NCBI GenBank assembly: GCA_934085585.1
Contig: CAKOHI010000001.1
Coordinates: 76,172 to 140,171 of the forward strand
Direction of reading: 5' to 3'
DNA: 64,000 nt
From: an uncultured Bacilli bacterium
GTDB lineage: Bacteria; Bacillota_I; Bacilli_A; RF39; UBA660
This document shows, piece by piece, positions 5,218 through 63,565 of the stretch (position 1 is its first letter; each line of letters opens with the position of its first letter). The position numbers and the translations under genes are program-made. The notes beneath the pieces were generated by a model. It saw only the letters and a list, made by a program, of their open reading frames with translations, ran no database searches and was not told the DNA's origin.

Positions 5218-5883
5218 TTATTTGTTTTTTAAATAATAATCTTGATGAAGTTGATGAGTAAAGGTTATTCCTGGCATAGTTCTTACTAGTTTTTGTTCTT
5301 TTCTAATAATTCTTAAATTTCTATTTATTTCTTTTGTATTTGTTACTGGACTCATACTTTCAAATGGAATTTTTTCTAAAGAAAGTTCTTGAAGTAATAA
5401 TGTATGTAATTTATGAGACATAGCACTTTTTTCTAAAAATTCATCTTTTATTTTTTGTGAAACATTACCATCGCATGATAGATAAATGTCATTTATAATA
5501 GAAATATTTTTATATTCATTAAAATTGTATAAAATTCTAATTAATCTACACAATATGTATTCATCACTACATGGTGGTTTTACTAATCCTTGCATCTCAT
5601 ATGAATCATTATTTGAAAATTCATCAAAACTAATAAATTTTGTAGTGTTTAAATTTGTTAATAATCTATCTATAATATGGTATATATTGTATAGAGCTAT
5701 TTGATAATAAAGATCATTTTCTATAAGTGATTCTCTTTCTTTTATACTTATATAATCTTTTGTAACTGCAAATTCAAGTTCTATAAGTGAATTTAAATAA
5801 TCGAATAATTCAGTTGTAAAATTATTTTTATTTGCTAATAATATTTGTTTTAATTCTTCTTTTCTTTCTAAAATATTTGCCAT
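5218..5883 (-). CDS. hypothetical protein (about 221 aa), first gene of a two-gene insertion between rpmH and oriC
   Basis: Long ORF; likely start is ATG at 5883 (MANILERK) with a GAAGGGAAG RBS, while the ORF-track start is an upstream TTG; no recognisable motif. Confidence 0.5.
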   Translation of the reverse strand: MANILERKEELKQILLANKNNFTTELFDYLNSLIELEFAVTKDYISIKERESLIENDLYYQIALYNIYHIIDRLLTNLNTTKFISFDEFSNNDSYEMQGLVKPPCSDEYILCRLIRILYNFNEYKNISIINDIYLSCDGNVSQKIKDEFLEKSAMSHKLHTLLLQELSLEKIPFESMSPVTNTKEINRNLRIIRKEQKLVRTMPGITFTHQLHQDYYLKNK

Positions 5884-5940
5884 ACCAAAACTTCCCTTCA
5901 AATTAATAGATATTTTATCATAATTTTTATAATTATGCCA

Positions 5941-6759
5941 CTATTTTAGGAAGGTTATATATAAATGTATAAATGTAAATTTATAATAATTCGTTTTAAG
6001 ACTTTTATTGTAGTCATACATTTTAGAAAATTTAGTGTTATACTCTATTCCATCTTTTAACATATATAGTATTATGTTTACCCATTCAGGATTTTCTTTA
6101 TAATAATTACTTTTTATATAATAGTCTTTTACTTCATTATAATCATATTCTAAAATAATTTGATCATATATTATTAATTCATCAGAAATGGAAATTATTC
6201 CAAACGTAGAAACTTTTCCTTTACCCACGAATAAATTTACTGCTCCGGAGTTTACAAATAACCTATTTTTGTAATTTGCTTCAAAACATCTGTGAGTGTG
6301 AGCAAATAGATAAATATCTGCATCGTAATTATCAATCAATTTATCAAATTTTTCATACGATGTTTTAGTTATTATATCCCTACTTTTATATGGACTTCCA
6401 TGAGATAGACATATTCTTTTATTAGCTATTTCAATAATTTTTGATGTTGGTAAGTTGTTTAAAAATTCTAAATTTTCTTTCGGTAAATTTTGATAAGTAT
6501 AATAAAATGAATAAAATTTTTCGGTTATTTCATTACTAGATGATGAAAGTTTTAATAATGATTCTTCTCTATTACCTAAGATTATTTCTGAATCTAGACT
6601 TTTTAGTGTATCTATTATTTTGTTATCGTCTGGACCATCCGTCAAAAAATCACCACAGATTAAAAATTTGGATATGTTTTTATCCTTTAAATAATCTAAA
6701 GCTTTATTAAGTAAAAATAAATTACCATGAATATCATTTAAAACTGCTATTTTCTCCAT
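5941..6759 (-). CDS. calcineurin-like metallophosphoesterase (YfcE/MJ0936-type phosphodiesterase) with a C-terminal extension
   Basis: Phosphoesterase motifs DIHGN, GDxxxxGP, GNRE, SHGSP and AHTHR. Confidence 0.75.
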   Translation of the reverse strand: MEKIAVLNDIHGNLFLLNKALDYLKDKNISKFLICGDFLTDGPDDNKIIDTLKSLDSEIILGNREESLLKLSSSSNEITEKFYSFYYTYQNLPKENLEFLNNLPTSKIIEIANKRICLSHGSPYKSRDIITKTSYEKFDKLIDNYDADIYLFAHTHRCFEANYKNRLFVNSGAVNLFVGKGKVSTFGIISISDELIIYDQIILEYDYNEVKDYYIKSNYYKENPEWVNIILYMLKDGIEYNTKFSKMYDYNKSLKTNYYKFTFIHLYITFLK

Positions 6760-6789
6760 TTTACATCTTTATTATTATATCATACTTTT

Positions 6790-7090
6790 TTGTTAATAAC
6801 TAGCCATTTTTGTGGATTGTGGATAATTTGTGGATAAGTATTAAAAATAATCCACATAATTAACAACATTTTATCAAAATTGGGTTTGTGAATAGTTTGG
6901 GGATAAGTATTAAGTGTATAATTTTTTGTTGATAGTGTTGATAACTTGTTTAAATAGGCATAAATATGGCTTTTTTTGTGTTGATAATTTTGGGGATTAA
7001 AAAAAAGTTATCAAAATTGCAAATTTAGTCTTTTTTTTTTTGGGAAAATAGAGTAAAATTTTAGTTAGGAAATTTAGTTAGCGGGGTGAG
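6790..7090. promoter_or_regulatory. oriC upstream segment: DnaA-box cluster plus AT-rich unwinding element
   Basis: Perfect TGTGGATAA boxes at 6818-6826 and 6829-6837; near-consensus TAATCCACA at 6848-6856 and TGGGGATAA at 6898-6906; TGTTGATAA variants at 6936-6944 and 6979-6987; A/T tracts at 7000-7050 directly upstream of dnaA. Confidence 0.7.
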
Positions 7091-13348: not shown

Positions 13349-15859
13349 ATGGATCATAGTAGAGATAGATTACAAGAAAATAATATTGTAAGTGAAATTG
13401 AATCATCTTTTATTGAATATTCAATGAGCGTTATTATTTCCAGAGCTTTACCAGATTTAAGGGATGGTTTAAAGCCAGTTCATAGAAGAATTATTTATGA
13501 TATGTTGGAAAATGGTTTAACACCAGATAAAAAGCATCGTAAGAGTGCGACGATAGTTGGGGATGTTATGGGGAAATATCATCCACATGGAGACTCATCA
13601 ATATATGATGCTATGGTAAGAATGGCACAAGACTTTAATTATCGTTATTTACTTGTTGATGGACACGGTAACTTTGGTAATATTGAATATCCTAGAGCAG
13701 CTGCTTATCGTTATACTGAAAGTAAGTTAGCAAAGATATCAATGGAACTTTTAAGAGATATCAACAAAAATACGGTTAATTTTGTACCAAATTATGATGA
13801 ATCAACTGAAGAACCTGAAGTTTTACCTTCAAGATTTCCAAATATTTTAGTTAATGGAACAATGGGGATTGCTGTAGGTATGGCAACAAATATTCCTCCA
13901 CATAATTTAGGTGAAGTTATTGATGGATGTATTGCTTATATAGATAATCCTGAAATTACGACAGAAGAATTAATGCAACATATTAAGGGTCCAGATTTTC
14001 CAACTGGTGGTATTATTCTAGGTAATTCTGGGATAAAGAAAGCTTATGAAACTGGTAGAGGATCAATAACTATTAGAAGTAAAGCAACAATTGAAGAAAA
14101 GAATGGTAGACATTACATTGTTATTGAAGAAGTACCTTATGGAGTTAATACTCTAGATTTAAAACAAAAAGTTGCGGATTTAGTACATAATAAAATACTT
14201 GAAGGTATTACTGATTATCATACTGATTTAAAAGATGGTATTAAGATTACTATAACACTTAAAAAAGATGCTAATCCTCAAGTAGTATTAAATAATTTAT
14301 ATAAACATACGGCTTTTCAAACAACTTTTGGTATTATCTTCTTAATGCTTGATAAACAAACACCTAGAACTTTAGGTTTAAAAGATATTATTAGTAAATA
14401 TGTAGATTATCAACAAGAAGTTATTATTAGAAGAACTCAATTTGAATTAGATAAAGCTGAAAAGAGAGTACATATCTTAGAAGGTTACCAAATTGTATTT
14501 GATAATTTAGATGAAGTTATTAAGATTATTAAAGAATCTAAAGCTGATGGTGAAGCAAAAGCTAAATTAATGGAACGTTTTGGATTAACTGAAGCTCAAA
14601 CTGATAATATTCTAGAAATGAAATTACGTCGTTTAACGGGTCTAGAACGTGAAAAGATTGAAGAAGAATTAAATGCTTTAAGAATTGAAATAGAACGCTT
14701 ACGTGGCATTTTAGCGGATAATAATAAGGTATTAGGTATTATTAAAGACGAAATGACTGAGATTAAGAATAAATATGGTGATGAAAGACGTACAAAAATT
14801 GATATGACTGCGGTTGATTATATTGAAGATGAATCATTAATTCCAGAAGAAAATATCTTGGTAGTACTTACTAACAAAGGTTATATTAAGAGAACTACAT
14901 CTGATACATTTAAGTCACAAAATCGTGGTGGCGTTGGAATCAAGGGAATGACTACGAATGATGAAGACTTTGTTGAACACATGATTAACTTATCAACACA
15001 TGATTATATTTTATTCTTTACTGATAAAGGTAAAGTCTATAGATTAAAAGGTTATGAAATTCCTGAATTCTCACGTCAATCAAAAGGAATTCCAATTGTT
15101 AACTTACTTCAAGTAGAAAAAGATGAAAGAGTTAATGCTGTTATCCAAATAAATCGTGAAGAAGAATGTAAATACTTATTATTTGCTACTGAAGGCGGAG
15201 TTGTTAAGAAAACATTAATTAGTGAATTTGCTAATATTAGAAATAGTGGTAAGATTTGTATCTCATTAAGAGATAATGATAAATTGATTGATGTTAAAAA
15301 AACAACTGGTAATGATTTAGTTCTTTTAGGTAGTGATAATGGAAGAATGGTTAAGTTTAATGAAGAAGAAATCAGAGTAATGGGACGTACAGCTTCAGGT
15401 GTTCGTGGTATTTCATTAGATGGAAGTAAGTGTATTTGTTCTGAAATTGTTAAAGAGGATGATACTATATTGCTTGTTACTGAAAAAGGTTTTGGTAAAC
15501 AAACAAAGGTAAGTGAATATCGTCAAACAAGAAGAGGTTCTAAAGGCGTTAAAGCTATGAATATTACGGAAAAGAACGGAAATCTTGTTAGTGTTAAAAT
15601 AGTTTATGAAAATAAAGAACTTGTTTTAATGACTAATTCAGGTATGACCATGAGAATGCCACTTGATCAAATATCATTATTAGGTCGTGTAACTCAAGGA
15701 TTAAGACTTATTAATTTAAAAGATAATCAAAAGGTTTCTACGATAAGTTTAGTAGATAAAGAAGAAAATGAACCTGAAAATACTACTGAACAAAGTGAAA
15801 ATGTTGCTAATGAAAATATGGAAACAGCGGATAGTATACAAAATAATGAGACTGAATAA
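13349..15859 (+). CDS. gyrA: DNA gyrase subunit A
   Basis: Active-site region AAYRYTE, a quinolone-resistance-determining region, and the C-terminal beta-pinwheel repeats. Confidence 0.95.
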
Positions 15860-15983: not shown

Positions 15984-16759
15984 TGTTTCACGTGGAACAT
16001 AATGTTAGTAATAATTTTGTAATTTTTATATTTTAGTTATTATAAAATAATTTTATAATTAATTAAATTTTTTTAATTTAAAAATAATTTATATGTTTCA
16101 CGTGAAACATAGTGTTGATAACTTGTGAAATATTTATAATTTTTAATTTATTTATTTTTTTGATTATTATTAATAACAATGATGGATATGATGTTTCACG
16201 TGAAACATCATGTTGATAATTTGTTATTTTATATTAATAATTGTATGTTTTTTGATAATTATTAATTATTATTGATTATTATTTTGAAATGTTTCACGTG
16301 AAACATTGTTGATAAGTAGTTGATATTAATTAATTGGATTTTTTTAATATGATTGATTATAATTTTGCTTCATATACGTTTCACGTGGAACATAATGTTT
16401 ATAGTTTGTTTTTAAAAGTAATAGATTTTATCTTTAAATAATTTGGATTTGTCTATTTTTATTTATATTTACTATGTTCCACGTGAAACATAGTGTTAAT
16501 AATTTGTTAATTACTAGCATATTATAATAAACTAATACTCCTTTATTACAATTTTATAGGTAAATTAAGTGATGTTTCACGTGAAACATCATGTTGATAA
16601 AAAGTTTATTAATTTTAAATAGATCACGCAAATAAATTATATTGTTATCTAATAGCTATGTTCCACGTGAAACATTGTTAATAAATTGTTTATAAAATGA
16701 AGTCAATTTTATTAAGTTTGTTAATATGAAATTTATAAGTATATGTTTCACGTGGAACA
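15984..16759. repeat. tandem array of nine parS (ParB/Spo0J-binding) palindromes, each adjacent to a DnaA-box-like 9-mer
   Basis: 16-mers at 15984-15999, 16093-16108, 16192-16207, 16290-16305, 16377-16392, 16475-16490, 16573-16588, 16659-16674 and 16744-16759; all match TGTTNCACGTGAAACA or its reverse complement; the site at 16475-16490 is the exact B. subtilis consensus TGTTCCACGTGAAACA; the site at 16377-16392 has C in place of T at position 1; spacing 84-118 bp. Confidence 0.8.
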
Positions 16760-16984
16760 TTATATTTATAGAAGCTAGTATAATAAAGTGCCAAACAAAT
16801 GTTTGAAATAGATAAAAGCTATCTTGGGAAATGTTTGGTTGACATAATATTTTTATGAGTATTTAAAAAAATAGGAAATATTTAAAAATTATATTTTGGT
16901 TTTTGTAAGGTTAAATAAGGGATTTATGAAGATTTTGTTAATAGAAAAAATTAATATAATTTAATATTTGATTTTTATTAAAAT

Positions 16985-16998
16985 TATTTCCCGGGAAA
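16985..16998. promoter_or_regulatory. Noc-binding-site-like palindrome ATTTCCCGGGAAAT
   Basis: Perfect 14-bp palindrome identical to the B. subtilis NBS consensus; it extends to an 18-bp palindrome TTATTTCCCGGGAAATAA at 16983-17000. Confidence 0.5.
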
Positions 16999-17104
16999 TA
17001 ATTAGTTAACATAATATTTTTGTCGTTTTATGTGTTTTTGGTGATATTTATTGAGATTTTAGGTTACTTTGCTAAATTTAAAAATGAGTTATTAACAAAT
17101 AATC

Positions 17105-17133
17105 TTGACAGTTATTATATTATTTGGTAAGAT
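17105..17133 (+). promoter_or_regulatory. sigma-A-type promoter for ffs
   Basis: TTGACA, a 17-bp spacer, then TAAGAT; a transcription start around 17140 matches the SRP RNA 5' end. Confidence 0.6.
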
Positions 17134-17139
17134 GTAAAC

Positions 17140-17218
17140 GTGCAACAAATATGCTGTAAATTGGTCAGGATTGGAAAATAGCAGCCACATCAGCCTATGT
17201 TTGTGTGCACTTTTTTTT
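17140..17218 (+). ncRNA. ffs: signal recognition particle RNA (4.5S/small SRP RNA)
   Basis: Domain IV motif GGTCAGGATTGGAAAATAGCAGCC (compare E. coli GGUCAGGUCCGGAAGGAAGCAGCC); terminal helix GUGCAACAAAUAUGCUG paired with CAGCCUAUGUUUGUGUGCAC; U-run; consensus promoter upstream. Confidence 0.75.
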
Positions 17219-17228
17219 GGAGGAAATT

Positions 17229-22054: not shown

Positions 22055-22754
22055 TTTATTTGATTATCCAAATAGATATATTATGCAAATGAAAGATGGT
22101 TTTAAATTTTCATTGGATTCTATTTTGCTTTCTGAATATGTTGTCATTAAGAAAAAAGATAAAAATATATTAGATATGTGTACTGGAAATGCTCCGGTTC
22201 CTTTGGTATTAAGTTTGAAAACTAATGCTCAAATTGTAGGTTTTGAAATACAAGAAGAAATTAGTAAATTAGCTATAGAATCAGTTAAGATTAATAGAAT
22301 TAACAATATAAAAATTGTTAATGATGATATAAAAAATATAAATAATTATTATGATAAAAATTATTTTGATATAATAACATGTAATCCACCATATTTTAAA
22401 ACAAAAGAAGGTGGATTTAGAAATAGAAATGATTACTTAACACTTGCAAGGCATGAAGTTTCCATAGATCTTGAAACAATTTTTAGCATTGTGGCTAAAT
22501 ATTTAAAAGATAATGGGGTATTTTATCTAATTCATCGAGTAGAAAGATTAGATGAAATAATTTTGTATGCTAATAAAAATAGAGTTAATGTTAAGGAAAT
22601 ACAATTTATATCGACGAAAAAAGGTGAAGTTGCTAATACGGTAATAGTAAAATGTGTTAAAAATAGCAAGTTAGGTGTTAAATTAAGAAAAATGGTATGT
22701 GTTGATAACGTAAGCACTTATCAACATATTTTTGAAGGGAGTAGTTCTAAATGA
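22014..22754 (+). CDS. N6-adenine-specific tRNA methyltransferase (TrmN6/YabB-like)
   Basis: SAM-binding motif DMCTGNAP and the NPPY catalytic motif (ITCNPPYF); the real start may be the internal ATG at 22032. Confidence 0.7.
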   Translation: MEKKLIMTSKVKNDLFDYPNRYIMQMKDGFKFSLDSILLSEYVVIKKKDKNILDMCTGNAPVPLVLSLKTNAQIVGFEIQEEISKLAIESVKINRINNIKIVNDDIKNINNYYDKNYFDIITCNPPYFKTKEGGFRNRNDYLTLARHEVSIDLETIFSIVAKYLKDNGVFYLIHRVERLDEIILYANKNRVNVKEIQFISTKKGEVANTVIVKCVKNSKLGVKLRKMVCVDNVSTYQHIFEGSSSK

Positions 22755-27064: not shown

Positions 27065-27265
27065 AGTTTAACAAAGAAGGAAAGAGTAGGTATCATTCGT
27101 TTCATAGAGATTTCTTGGTTGGTGGAAAAGAAAAAATGAAGATATACGAACATGGCTCTGGAGTTAAAATCGGGTAATTACGTTATAAATTTTAAGTTGC
27201 ATGATAAATCATGAATTAAGGTGGTACCGCGGGTTATACTCGTCCTTAGTTTGTGATTTTTTTTT
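27065..27265 (+). promoter_or_regulatory. T-box riboswitch leader (probable Met specifier) controlling dut-metG
   Basis: Conserved T-box sequence AATTAAGGTGGTACCGCGG at 27214-27232, an upstream AGAGTA GA-motif region, and terminator-like pairing ending in a U9 run at 27257-27265. Confidence 0.6.
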
Positions 27266-27275
27266 GGAGGTAAAT

Positions 27276-27773
27276 ATGAGAAAGTTTGAAAAAATAAGTT
27301 ATCCTGAATTTGTTAAAGTTTTTGGAGATAATAAAACTTTGTATGATGATTATATGCTCCCTTTAAGAGGGACAAAGTGTAGTGCAGGTTATGATTTTTT
27401 TGCTATAAAAGATTATGTTATAAAACCAAATGAAATTTTAAAAATACCAACTGGTTATAAAGCTACATTTGAAAGTGATGAAATGCTAATGCTTGTTGTA
27501 AGAAGTAGTATGGGTTTCAAATATAATGTTAGACTTACAAATCAAGTGGGAATAATTGAAAGTGATTATTATAATAATCCTGATAATGAAGGGCATATGT
27601 GGATTTGTCTTCAAAATCATGGAGATAAAGAATATATAATTAATAAGGGAGATGCTTATGCTCAAGGGATATTTGTTAAATTTTTAACAACAGATGATGA
27701 TTGTGTTAATAAAACAAGAATTGGTGGGCTAGGCAGTACAAATAAAAAGAAAGAAGGAAATGAAAATGAATAA
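27276..27773 (+). CDS. dut: dUTP diphosphatase (YncF-type dUTPase family)
   Basis: dUTPase motifs SAGYDF, VVRSSMG, GIIESDY and the C-terminal RIGGLGSTN; GGAGG RBS; the ORF-track start lies upstream inside the leader. Confidence 0.7.
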   Translation: MRKFEKISYPEFVKVFGDNKTLYDDYMLPLRGTKCSAGYDFFAIKDYVIKPNEILKIPTGYKATFESDEMLMLVVRSSMGFKYNVRLTNQVGIIESDYYNNPDNEGHMWICLQNHGDKEYIINKGDAYAQGIFVKFLTTDDDCVNKTRIGGLGSTNKKKEGNENE

Positions 27774-29298
27774 AAAATATTATATTACTACACCAATATA
27801 TTATCCAAGTGCGGATTTTCATATTGGACATTGTTATACAACAATTATTGCAGATGCTATTGCAAGATATAAAAGATTAAATGGCTATGATGTGTTTTTC
27901 CAAACAGGAACTGATGAACATGGAGCAAAAATTGAACAAAAGGCTAAAGATGCTGGTGTAACACCAAAAGAATATGTTGATGTTATAATTGAAAATGCTA
28001 AAAATTTATGGAAAAGTTTAAATATTTCATATGATTATTTTATTAGAACAACTGATGAATCACATGTTAAGGCTGTGCAAGCAATATTTAAAAAATTATA
28101 TGATAAAGGAGATATTTATAAAGGTTCTTATGAAGGTTTATATTGTGTTCCGTGTGAATCATTTTGGACTGAAACTCAACTTGTGGATGGAAAATGTCCA
28201 GATTGTGGTCGTGAAGTTAAAACAGTTACTGAAGAAGCTTACTTTTTTAGATTATCAAAATACCAAGACAAATTAATTGAATTATATGATAAGAATCCTG
28301 AATTTATTTTACCAGTTTCAAGAAAAAATGAACTTGTAAATAATTTCATTAAACCAGGACTTGAAGATTTATGCGTATCAAGAACTTCAGTTAAATGGGG
28401 AATTCCTGTAGATTTTGACCCTAAACACGTGATTTATGTTTGGATTGATGCTTTATCAAACTATATTACTTCTTTAGGTTATCCAGATGAAAATGCCCCA
28501 TTATTTAAAAAATATTGGCCAGCAGACTTACATTTAGTTGGTAAAGAAATTACAAGATTCCATGCAATTATTTGGCCTGCACTTTTAATGGCTTTAGGAA
28601 TTGAAATACCTCACCAAGTGTTTGGACATGGATGGTTAATTATTAATGGTGGTAAAATCTCTAAATCATTAGGTAATTATAAAGACCCTCGAGAATATAT
28701 AGAAGCTTATGGTGTTGATGCAGTTAGATATTTTGCATTAAGAGAGGTATCTTTTGGTAGTGATGGTAATTTCTCTGAAGAAGCTTTAATTAATAGAACA
28801 AATACAGATTTAGTAAATAATTTAGGAAACTTGATTAATAGAACTATAAGCATGAGTCATAAATACTTTGATGGAGTGGTAGAAAATCCAAAAGTAAATG
28901 AAGATATTGATACTGACTTAATTAGTGCTGTTACAAGTTTAAAATCTAAAGTTGATGAAAAAATGGATGGTTTAAAAGTAAATGAAGCTTTAGAAGAAAT
29001 ATTTGAAGTATTAAAAAGATGTAATAAATATATTGATGAAACTACACCATGGATTCTTGCTAAAGATGATGCAAAACATGACAGATTAAAAACGGTTTTA
29101 TATAATATTTTAGAAAGTATTAGAGTTTGTGCAATACTTCTTGAGCCATTTATTAATGTAACAAGTGAAAAAATATTAGATGAACTTAATACAAAGGAAA
29201 GAAGCATTGAAAGTATAAATGAATTTGGTAATTTAGAATGTGGAATTACTTTAAATAAACCAGAAATCTTATTTAATAGGATTGAGATAAATGAATAA
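27760..29298 (+). CDS. metG: methionine--tRNA ligase
   Basis: HIGH motif (DFHIGHCYT), KMSKS (KISKSLGN) and a CPDC zinc knuckle. Confidence 0.9.
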   Translation: MKMNKKYYITTPIYYPSADFHIGHCYTTIIADAIARYKRLNGYDVFFQTGTDEHGAKIEQKAKDAGVTPKEYVDVIIENAKNLWKSLNISYDYFIRTTDESHVKAVQAIFKKLYDKGDIYKGSYEGLYCVPCESFWTETQLVDGKCPDCGREVKTVTEEAYFFRLSKYQDKLIELYDKNPEFILPVSRKNELVNNFIKPGLEDLCVSRTSVKWGIPVDFDPKHVIYVWIDALSNYITSLGYPDENAPLFKKYWPADLHLVGKEITRFHAIIWPALLMALGIEIPHQVFGHGWLIINGGKISKSLGNYKDPREYIEAYGVDAVRYFALREVSFGSDGNFSEEALINRTNTDLVNNLGNLINRTISMSHKYFDGVVENPKVNEDIDTDLISAVTSLKSKVDEKMDGLKVNEALEEIFEVLKRCNKYIDETTPWILAKDDAKHDRLKTVLYNILESIRVCAILLEPFINVTSEKILDELNTKERSIESINEFGNLECGITLNKPEILFNRIEINE

Positions 29299-61891: not shown

Positions 61892-63565
61892 GTGATTACT
61901 TTGCATAAAAATATAGAAGAACTAAATAGAATTTTGGATGAACTATTATTAAATCCAGAAAATGAATGTGTAGAATTTAAAAAGGCAAAAAATAGTTTCG
62001 ATATGGATGTATTAGGTAAATATTTTTCCGCTTTGGGTAATGAAGCAAATTTAAAAAATAAGCAATATTCTTGGATAATTTTGGGTATTGATGACAAATC
62101 ACATGAATTAACTGGTACTAATTATTTTAATGATAATAATTTTAATAAAGTGAAGAAACAAATTTCTGATAATACAACTGATAATATAGGTTTTATTGAA
62201 ATATATGAGTTTAAGAAAAATAATAAAAGAGTTATTATGTTTCAGGTTCCTGCTGCTTCTGGTACACCAATTAATTGGAAAGGGTTTCCATATGGAAGAA
62301 ATGGCGAATCCATCGTTCCATTAACTTTAAATAAAATTGAACAAATTAAATCAACTGCTAATTGTGATTGGTCTAGACAAGTAATTGATGAAGCCACAAT
62401 AACTAATTTGGATAAAGAAGCAATTGAAGTTGCTAGGCAACAGTTTAAAATAAAACATAAAGGTAAAAATATAGCACTTGAGATAGACAGTTTATCTGAT
62501 ATAGATTTTTTAAATAAAGTAAAATTAACATTGAATAGTAAAATTACTATGGCTTGTATGTTGCTTTTGGGTAAAAATGCTGATGATTATTTAATGAATG
62601 GTTATACACCAAAGTTGACTTGGAAACTTTATGATGAATTTAATGTTGTTGATTATGAACATTTTGGTATACCATTTATTATTAATGTGGAAAAATTAAA
62701 ATCAAAAATACGAAATTTAAGGTATAGATATATGGTTAATGATAATTCTTTGTTTCCAAATGAAGTAGATCAATACGATAACTATATTCTCCGAGAGTTA
62801 ATAAATAATTGTATTGTACATCAAGATTATAGATTACATGGCAATGTAAATGTTATGGAGTATAAGGATAAGTTAATAATAACTAATGAAGGTAATTTTA
62901 TTCCTGAAACGATAGAAAATGTTTTAAAAGACGGTTTTTCATCGCCATATTACAGAAATCAGTTTTTAGCTAATGCTATGGTTAATTTAAATATGATTGA
63001 TACTGTTGGTAGTGGAATAAAAAGAGTTTATGATATTCAGAAGAAAAAGTTTTTTCCGTTGCCTGATTATGATTTAAGTAAGCCTAGTCGTGTTAAAGTT
63101 ACTTTGTATGGAAAGGTAATAGATGAAAAATATAGTAAGATATTATTTGAAAAAACTAATTTGGATATAGATAAAGTAATGTTGTTAGATAGAGTACAAA
63201 AAGGATTTGAAATTACAAAAGAACAAAGTGATTATTTAAGAAAAGACAATTTAATTGAAGGAAGATATCCTTACATTTATATTTCGTCTGATATTGCAAA
63301 AATAACAAATAAAGAAAAGGATTATATTGATAATAAAGGTTTAAACAATACATATTATAAAGATTATATTTTAACATATATTGAAAAGTTTGGAAAAGCT
63401 ACAAGGGAAGATATTAATAATTTGATTTACCCTAAATTGCCAATAAATATGAGTGATAAAAATAAAAATAATAGGGTTAGATATATTATATCTCAATTGA
63501 AAAAAGAAAATAAAATAGAAAATCAAGGTTCGTTAACAAAATCCTCTTGGGTTAAAAAAAAATAA
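61892..63565 (+). CDS. AlbA_2 (Schlafen-like divergent AAA) domain protein with RecG-C-terminal-like/HATPase_c_4 region; putative DNA-binding regulator (about 555 aa)
   Basis: N-terminal E.ECVEFKKAK...LGKYFSALGNEANL pattern typical of AlbA_2 domain proteins; TTG at 61901 is a possible alternative start. Confidence 0.45.
   Translation: MITLHKNIEELNRILDELLLNPENECVEFKKAKNSFDMDVLGKYFSALGNEANLKNKQYSWIILGIDDKSHELTGTNYFNDNNFNKVKKQISDNTTDNIGFIEIYEFKKNNKRVIMFQVPAASGTPINWKGFPYGRNGESIVPLTLNKIEQIKSTANCDWSRQVIDEATITNLDKEAIEVARQQFKIKHKGKNIALEIDSLSDIDFLNKVKLTLNSKITMACMLLLGKNADDYLMNGYTPKLTWKLYDEFNVVDYEHFGIPFIINVEKLKSKIRNLRYRYMVNDNSLFPNEVDQYDNYILRELINNCIVHQDYRLHGNVNVMEYKDKLIITNEGNFIPETIENVLKDGFSSPYYRNQFLANAMVNLNMIDTVGSGIKRVYDIQKKKFFPLPDYDLSKPSRVKVTLYGKVIDEKYSKILFEKTNLDIDKVMLLDRVQKGFEITKEQSDYLRKDNLIEGRYPYIYISSDIAKITNKEKDYIDNKGLNNTYYKDYILTYIEKFGKATREDINNLIYPKLPINMSDKNKNNRVRYIISQLKKENKIENQGSLTKSSWVKKK

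Follow-up and report, generated by a model that had tools for sequence, protein, structure and literature searches.

The spacer between gyrA and the small SRP RNA gene ffs of an uncultured member of the Bacilli holds a dense array of nine parS sites. It is the local representative of a hub that is conserved in the gyrA-ffs-tadA-dnaX neighbourhood across a large clade of low-GC uncultured Bacilli. The repeat unit is composite: parS is joined at a fixed offset by a variant of the DnaA box, and a Noc-binding site (NBS) lies in the same spacer. The array is probably an origin-proximal ParB loading zone of this low-GC species, composite in nature and coupled to DnaA and Noc. The stretch of DNA analysed, referred to as the window, is 64 kb long, and all positions given without a locus name refer to it.

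The parS array in the gyrA-ffs spacer

As stated in the preliminary description of this DNA, the array is flanked by gyrA and ffs, and all nine of the parS 16-mers that had been reported for this gap were recovered. The features of the spacer and its edges are the following:

13349..15859, plus strand: gyrA, left edge of the spacer
15984..15999: parS 1, TGTTTCACGTGGAACA, with the flank TGTTAGTAA, a degenerate box
16094..16109: parS 2, TGTTTCACGTGAAACA, a perfect palindrome
16192..16207: parS 3, within the 24-bp palindrome at 16188-16211
16290..16305: parS 4
16377..16392: parS 5, CGTTTCACGTGGAACA, deviating at the outermost base
16475..16490: parS 6, TGTTCCACGTGAAACA, with TGTTAATAA (2 mismatches to a DnaA box) after it at 16494-16502
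16573..16588: parS 7, within the 22-bp palindrome at 16570-16591
16659..16674: parS 8, followed after a gap of 1 nt by TGTTAATAA at 16676-16684
16744..16759: parS 9, TGTTTCACGTGGAACA
16985..17000: perfect NBS, TATTTCCCGGGAAATA, the only one in the window, 226 bp past the last parS
17105-17133: promoter-like TTGACA-17-TAAGAT, upstream of ffs
17134..17219, plus strand: ffs (small SRP RNA, Rfam RF00169), right edge of the spacer

Searching the 64-kb window with the pattern TGTTNCACGTGAAACA and up to two mismatches gives nine parS sites, starting at 15984, 16094, 16192, 16290, 16377, 16475, 16573, 16659 and 16744, and none outside 15984-16759. Eight of the nine match TGTTNCACGTGNAACA exactly, and in the ninth, at 16377, the outermost base is the sole mismatch. 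Counted as strand-matches, the pattern was observed 18 times against a mean of 0.09 in shuffled sequence; a chance origin of an exact parS array is statistically impossible. By their sequence, the nine sites are canonical parS of the ParB/Spo0J type near oriC, which is what had been proposed for them, and the site at 16475-16490, singled out earlier as the exact consensus, does read TGTTCCACGTGAAACA. Two of the earlier measurements are corrected here. The start-to-start distances are 110, 98, 98, 87, 98, 98, 86 and 85 bp, so that the spacing of 84-118 bp given before was slightly off and is 85-110 bp. Extended palindromes enclosing parS exist as described, at a length of 24 bp (16188-16211) and 22 bp (16570-16591) rather than 18-20 bp.

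The 1275-bp spacer is also present in four other metagenome assemblies with the same GyrA, with 100% identity in all but one, which has 99.6%, and the offsets of the nine parS are unchanged in these four independent assemblies. The array is therefore no assembly artefact; it is real and stable within the species. This species is also represented by the NCBI MAG GCA_964329755.1, and judging by MAG labels its nearest named relative is Candidatus Onthocola, Bacilli incertae sedis.

The repeat unit and its spacers

When the nine units are aligned on parS, the motif A-parS-T is kept throughout and is followed by TGTT.ATAA..T.TT, either with or without a 3-nt insert. Conservation ends about 16 nt past parS, and the masked spacers resemble each other no more than shuffled sequences do (z = -0.8). 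The earlier statement that the spacers are not conserved holds for the DNA beyond parS and these ~16 nt and had overlooked the conserved downstream flank, and with it the composite make-up of the unit and the NBS further along the spacer. The accompanying claim that it is the site, not the spacer, that is maintained agrees with unrelated spacers around an invariant parS.

Several other explanations of the repeat pattern were considered and rejected. Tandem Repeats Finder returns just 1.9 copies of a 98-bp period in the array, and simple tandem duplication was ruled out, as the masked spacers are not alike above chance and the period found is a short 98-bp stretch. A plasmid centromere of the sopC type was discarded on the same two grounds, dissimilar spacers and a 98-bp period of 1.9 copies, and on the lack of a ParA motif or parS-type ParB gene nearby. 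The label “plasmid-centromere-like” that had been given to the array does not fit, as its tandem units differ from one another and a parAB operon is absent nearby. For helical phasing, the array offers just 8 intervals, with spacing classes that differ by 11-13 bp, and parS-parS distances across the clade are broad.

A neutral or selfish repeat, an array of operators for gyrA or ffs, or a CRISPR-like array would all deprive the locus of a centromere role. The units do stand head to tail at regular spacing, and the palindromes of the array score like terminator hairpins, yet an origin of this kind is highly improbable. The 16-mer is the exact universal parS, it stays invariant among unrelated spacers, it has no further copies in the 64 kb and its position is kept in relatives down to ~45% GyrA identity. 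Promoter-like hits, which could be read into the TTGATA flank, stay at shuffle level (20 against 19.1), and the spacers that such promoters would need are inconsistent across units. For CRISPR, the criteria used were identical repeats of 28-37 bp, unique spacers of 30-40 bp and cas genes; the array has a conserved core of 16-32 bp and gaps of 69-94 bp, lengths unlike CRISPR, and no cas-like ORFs flank it.

The origin neighbourhood

Two features define the origin in the window:

6810..6990: oriC DnaA-box cluster upstream of dnaA, with two copies of TGTGGATAA and variants that include two copies of TGTTGATAA
7094-8437: dnaA

The GC-skew minimum and the DnaA-box cluster fall at ~6760-7090, just 5' of dnaA, and the GC content is 26%. 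The array lies 9 kb from oriC as marked by the box cluster and skew minimum; its distance to the end of dnaA is 7.5 kb. Gene order is Bacillus-like, with mnmG, mnmE, jag, yidC, rnpA, rpmH, oriC, dnaA, dnaN, recF, gyrB and gyrA leading up to the parS hub, and ffs, tadA, dnaX, ybaB, recR, holB, yaaT, mfd, spoVT, metS, ksgA, yabG and spoVG to the right of it. SpoIIR is encoded nearby, and the organism therefore carries sporulation genes.

A ComK-family ORF of 142 aa (PF06338; 9783-10211, plus strand) lies between dnaN and recF, where Bacillus has yaaA. Two genes on the minus strand are inserted between rpmH and oriC/dnaA (5218-6759), a metallophosphoesterase gene (5941-6759) and a 227-aa ORF without a family match (5218-5901), and the DnaA-box cluster therefore adjoins the phosphoesterase gene and not rpmH. 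Further to the right, a T-box leader (RF00230, 106 bits; 27065-27250) precedes the methionyl-tRNA synthetase gene (27760-29298), and a 190-aa ORF that overlaps this leader (27201-27773) is probably spurious. At the right end of the window, a 557-aa protein with SLFN_AlbA_2 and HATPase_c_4 domains (61892-63565) has matches on short contigs only, unlike its neighbours, and the region may be a strain-variable island.

Conservation of the hub

Dense parS arrays were searched for in 185,579 species genomes as two parS 66-96 nt apart, which gave at least 120 loci. Among the matches listed, 33 of 120 have at least 5 parS per kb, several of them with 8-10, and they come from many phyla, including Parcubacteria, Paceibacterota, Lachnospiraceae, Bacteroidetes and Acidobacteria; outside the clade of the window, most of the listed arrays lie near a parB gene. 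In most bacteria, the parS sites are grouped within 5-40 kb (PMC8357415). Myxococcus xanthus has 24 parS, most of which lie in ~3 kb at ~30 kb from oriC. The view that the array is unusual thus does not hold, given the M. xanthus cluster, the general clustering of parS and the spread across many phyla of arrays with 5 or more sites per kb.

At least ~20 low-GC loci, labelled Bacilli, Erysipelotrichaceae or Mycoplasmatota (a few of them probably mislabelled), are syntenic with the window, and among the matches listed these loci hold clusters of 2-11 parS between gyrA and dnaX, placed either ahead of ffs and tadA or behind them. A metagenome scan for NBS within 5-35 nt of parS yielded at least 120 further loci; 117 of the 120 listed are below 33% GC, nearly all belong to the gyrA-tadA-dnaX neighbourhood and ~115 have their parS clusters between gyrA and dnaX. 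Among the listed matches, GyrA identity to the window ranges from 42 to 79% across hub loci and from 42 to 75% in the metagenome set. From this synteny in both metagenomes and genomes it follows that the hub is a hallmark of a large clade. The comparison with related genomes that the preliminary description had called for thus brought up arrays in the same neighbourhood in at least ~20 species genomes and ~115 metagenome contigs.

Some relatives carry fresh amplifications with units of 42, 44, 55, 82 or 106 bp, while others have diverged like the array in the window; fresh amplifications and unrelated spacers together indicate that the parS copy number has been regenerated repeatedly. In at least 12 syntenic species loci, perfect NBS lie interspersed among the parS, for instance in L070 (6 + 6), L099 (8 + 7) and L003 (4 + 5). 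In one distant relative (L186:7910-14323) the origin is rearranged, with recF directly after mnmE-jag-yidC-rnpA on one strand and dnaA divergent; the parS/NBS hub has nevertheless kept its place between gyrA and tadA. A Parcubacteria MAG (L036:7008-7813) has 10 parS in 0.8 kb directly downstream of gyrA, with 48% identity of its GyrA to that of the window, and the association of gyrA with a parS array may extend beyond the Bacilli clade.

DnaA boxes at fixed distances from parS

The conserved flank downstream of parS is TGTTGATAA at four of the nine sites, and the weaker TGTTAATAA is found at two more. The four copies are:

16113..16121, plus strand: DnaA-box variant TGTTGATAA, 3 nt after parS 2
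16211..16219, plus strand: DnaA-box variant TGTTGATAA, 3 nt after parS 3
16307..16315, plus strand: DnaA-box variant TGTTGATAA, 1 nt after parS 4, the modal geometry of the clade
16592..16600, plus strand: DnaA-box variant TGTTGATAA, 3 nt after parS 7

A single mismatch separates this 9-mer from the DnaA box TGTGGATAA (TTATCCACA). The window has 17 copies where 2.6 would be expected, a ~6.5-fold excess (the maximum in 100 shuffles was 7), and 11 of the 17 copies lie in the first 17 kb, with 3 in the two oriC intergenic regions. Considered as a DnaA-box cluster, the array contains four copies of a 9-mer that is used in the species' own oriC. The 17-mer TAGTGTTGATAACTTGT is common to unit 2 of the array and oriC (~6932-6948). 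An inverted pair of TGTTGATAA, 9 nt apart, is found at 22700 and 22718 (22700-22726) near the end of a methyltransferase gene.

In the clade, the same arrangement recurs with a defined geometry. Among the matches listed, 68 of 411 parS in metagenome loci have a DnaA box (at most 1 mismatch) within 20 bp, compared with 12.6 expected. Over 533 parS with both sides considered, again among the listed matches, a box in the TGTGGATAA orientation occurs 37 times at a gap of 1 nt and 9 times at a gap of 3 nt, and control offsets of 8-30 nt have 0-1 boxes each, except for 3 at offset 30; both paralogous units and related species contribute to these counts, which do not represent independent events. The sharp offset peak is the robust part of the evidence linking parS and the DnaA box. 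The listed parS-adjacent boxes of the clade are TGTGGATAA, the perfect consensus, in 18 cases, TGTTGATAA in 16 and TGTGAATAA in 5.

In its complete form, the arrangement is a module of parS, a t, TGTGGATAA, aat and NBS (with TGTTTCACGTGAAACA as parS and TATTTCCCGGGAAATA as NBS), which is present in five copies in locus L138 and in four in L211, ~400 bp apart. Relative to gyrA, the module is inverted in some species with its internal geometry unchanged. The units of the window have the same parS-box geometry, but with the TGTTGATAA variant of their own oriC.

The prominence of DnaA boxes raises the question of whether the locus serves replication control in the first place. As an element for DnaA titration or replication control, comparable to datA of E. 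coli or the DnaA-box clusters of B. subtilis, it would have ParB as a mere modulator, and segregation would be independent of it. The fixed offset between box and parS across the clade, the replication of a hub 9 kb from oriC immediately after initiation and the absence of ParA nearby would all suit such an element. The distribution of the boxes makes it unlikely, however. Box adjacency is found in 24 of ~138 hub loci among the matches listed, which leaves ~114 with parS and no adjacent box, and it is therefore not obligatory for hub function; in the window, a box with at most one mismatch is missing at five of the nine sites. Across the loci, the box is optional, and parS is what stays invariant.

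The Noc-binding site and the Noc-like protein

The NBS of the window is identical to the NBS DNA that was crystallised with Noc (PMC7383237), and within the window and its ~20 kb flanks both parS and NBS occur in this one spacer only. The right half of the NBS with the 21 nt after it (GGGAAATAATTAGTTAACATAATATTTTT, 16993-17021) forms an 86% direct repeat of 16826-16854, a segment which carries just the half-site-like GGGAAAT.

A ParB-family protein of 407 aa is encoded after rsmG, ~4 kb to the left of the window start (L121:13991-15214). Its scores are higher against Noc structures than against Spo0J (190 vs 176 bits), and the GERRFKA and ENIQR motifs are intact. The recognition region, S-Q-S...SN-K-L...LL-T...SE-R-H, corresponds to Q173, K179, T184 and R201. 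In parS readers, R173 is invariant and G201 is mostly present (Jalal et al. 2020, PMC7383237), and Q173 and R201 read two NBS-specific bases provided that there is one lysine at 179 or 184 (PMC7383237). With Q173, K179 and R201, the 407-aa protein is therefore predicted to read NBS and not parS; the specificity of this QKTR variant was taken from the rules in the text of the published scan (PMC7383237).

In this protein 9 residues precede the NTD, and its alignment to 7nfu begins at residue 27 of that structure; the protein is devoid of the first ~26 residues of Noc, including the membrane-targeting amphipathic helix. Due to the missing helix and a TIGR04285 score of 271 bits, below the cut-off of 315, it is called Noc-like here and not Noc. 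A C-terminal insertion of 200 residues has the strongly conserved stretch ITPDxFFSNPEKMPNKFFNFLEDTAANM, within which PNKFFNFLED.AANM is invariant; the conserved PNKFFNFLEDTAANM also lies within this insertion.

No soj or spo0J follows the Noc-like gene, and neither a second ParB paralogue nor ParA was found beside the rsmG-adjacent gene; the sister species is arranged alike. In that sister species (L123-L125:4489-5787), an ORF of 431 aa resembling PT-HINT domains or inteins lies between HTH genes and mnmE, and it is missing from the species of the window. The search for a parS reader combined six-frame scans for the GERR and ENxQR motifs with contig walks to the left and right and with the sister species. 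In the window and its ~20 kb flanks (~85 kb), no ParB with R173/G201 of the parS type was found, the Noc-type protein being the only family member there, and a tblastn search of the window and of all 254 loci with this protein found only the Noc-like gene within the clade. The upstream regions of the distant relatives L146, L176 and L186 are rearranged. For ParA, no KGGxGK[ST] Walker motif was present in the window or flanks. With no ParA and no parS-type ParB gene within ~85 kb, the system is probably ParA-independent, and Streptococcus pneumoniae and Staphylococcus aureus provide precedents for ParA-independent systems. We infer a cognate ParB because parS is conserved; it would be encoded elsewhere in the genome.

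It could also be argued that this lineage has no ParB-family protein besides the Noc-like one, which would either recognise parS as well as NBS or have assumed the centromere role; the array would then load a clamp derived from Noc in place of a canonical ParB. The Noc-like gene is the only one of its family in ~85 kb around oriC in both the window species and the sister species, the usual soj and spo0J do not follow noc, a classical nucleoid-occlusion tether would require the N-terminal membrane helix that the protein lacks, and its only NBS in 80 kb lies in the parS hub. Variants of dual specificity are, moreover, known from mutational scans (PMC7383237). A takeover of this kind is nonetheless improbable: the parS-specific variants of these scans have an invariant R173, whereas the Q173 of this protein, found together with R201, directs it to an NBS base, and more than 100 loci keep two distinct perfect motifs next to each other, without intermediates, which points to two readers.

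A proposed composite loading zone

As CTP-dependent clamps, both ParB and Noc nucleate at 16-bp sites, from which they then slide off, and ParB-parS loads SMC (PMC8357415, PMC8429893). In the preferred reading, the array as an origin-proximal ParB loading zone, ParB dimers would recognise each 16-bp palindrome, bind CTP, close as clamps and slide off. Nine sites at 85-110 bp from each other would raise the loading rate several-fold at a single point, 9 kb from oriC, and a single partition complex would then extend over the oriC-dnaX region and load the SMC condensin.

The composite nature of the unit would bring DnaA and a Noc-like CTP clamp into direct contact with the ParB nucleation sites. 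A DnaA molecule bound at 1-3 nt from the palindrome would have to contact the ParB dimer, keep it off or obstruct the escape of the clamp to that side. By mutual exclusion or by a roadblock at the edge of parS, DnaA availability and replication initiation could thereby be coupled to the loading of the centromere. As the hub is copied right after initiation, it could also titrate DnaA. The Noc-like clamp, in turn, would load in the same zone as ParB.

A more specific version of this model is put forward tentatively, as less likely than not. Here, the clade, with members in gut and rumen, would possess a site of fixed geometry, parS followed after 1 nt by the DnaA box and after a further ~3 nt by NBS, at which ParB, DnaA and a Noc paralogue without the helix would meet at one spot 9 kb from oriC, so that initiation of replication, loading of the centromere and Noc would be coupled physically. 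The Noc paralogue would act as a second centromere clamp and not as a nucleoid-occlusion tether. In the window this site would be partly dissociated.

Comparison with known systems

The predicted sites of three proteins are juxtaposed at distances fixed to the base pair, and this juxtaposition is kept in many species. The tripartite module is a single DNA of 45 bp, TGTTTCACGTGAAACAtTGTGGATAAaatTATTTCCCGGGAAATA, and would make in-vitro tests simple. The locus also bears on the divergence of Noc from ParB, as it shows a natural Noc homologue that has no membrane helix and has its predicted sites at the centromere. In a limited literature search, no published description was found of the hub position between gyrA and dnaX, of the composite of parS, DnaA box and NBS at fixed offsets, or of a helix-less Noc with centromere sites.

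The dense parS array alone is ordinary; with it, a design that is known and evidently widespread gains a further lineage. The M. xanthus cluster is alike in being a dense group of canonical chromosomal parS that lies near but separate from oriC and forms one ParB loading zone. It differs in having parAB and ParA-dependent segregation, and no DnaA-box or NBS partners are reported for it, whereas the array of the window packs 9 sites into 0.8 kb of the gyrA-ffs gap with no ParA or parS-type ParB gene nearby. Centromere arrays of plasmids, such as sopC of the F plasmid with its 12 repeats of 43 bp, also have many ParB-family sites head to tail in less than 1 kb. Plasmid units, however, are near-identical and adjoin parAB, while the units of the window have unrelated spacers, follow the chromosomal consensus and have no par operon.

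B. subtilis has the same 16-bp parS and NBS sequences, the ParB/Noc family of CTP clamps and a similar gene order at the origin. There, 8-10 parS are spread across ~0.75 Mb and NBS lie around the chromosome, in contrast to the window, where both occur in one spacer. In addition, the Noc homologue of the window species is without the amphipathic helix and has the 200-residue C-terminal insertion, and noc does not have soj and spo0J as neighbours.

Genetic work has revealed crosstalk between DnaA, ParB/ParA and Noc in Caulobacter, B. subtilis and S. aureus. DnaA of Caulobacter crescentus binds DnaA boxes in the parS centromere (Mera et al. 2014, via PMC6399470), so that DnaA boxes embedded in the centromere region are a shared feature. 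In the window, which belongs to a Firmicute and has putative DnaA sites, the box is fixed at 1 or 3 nt from the palindrome and repeated together with parS. Noc of S. aureus restrains DnaA-dependent initiation by an unknown mechanism (PMC5540599), and this provides a functional Noc-DnaA link in a Firmicute. The link in S. aureus is a genetic one, while the window presents a physical juxtaposition of the predicted sites.
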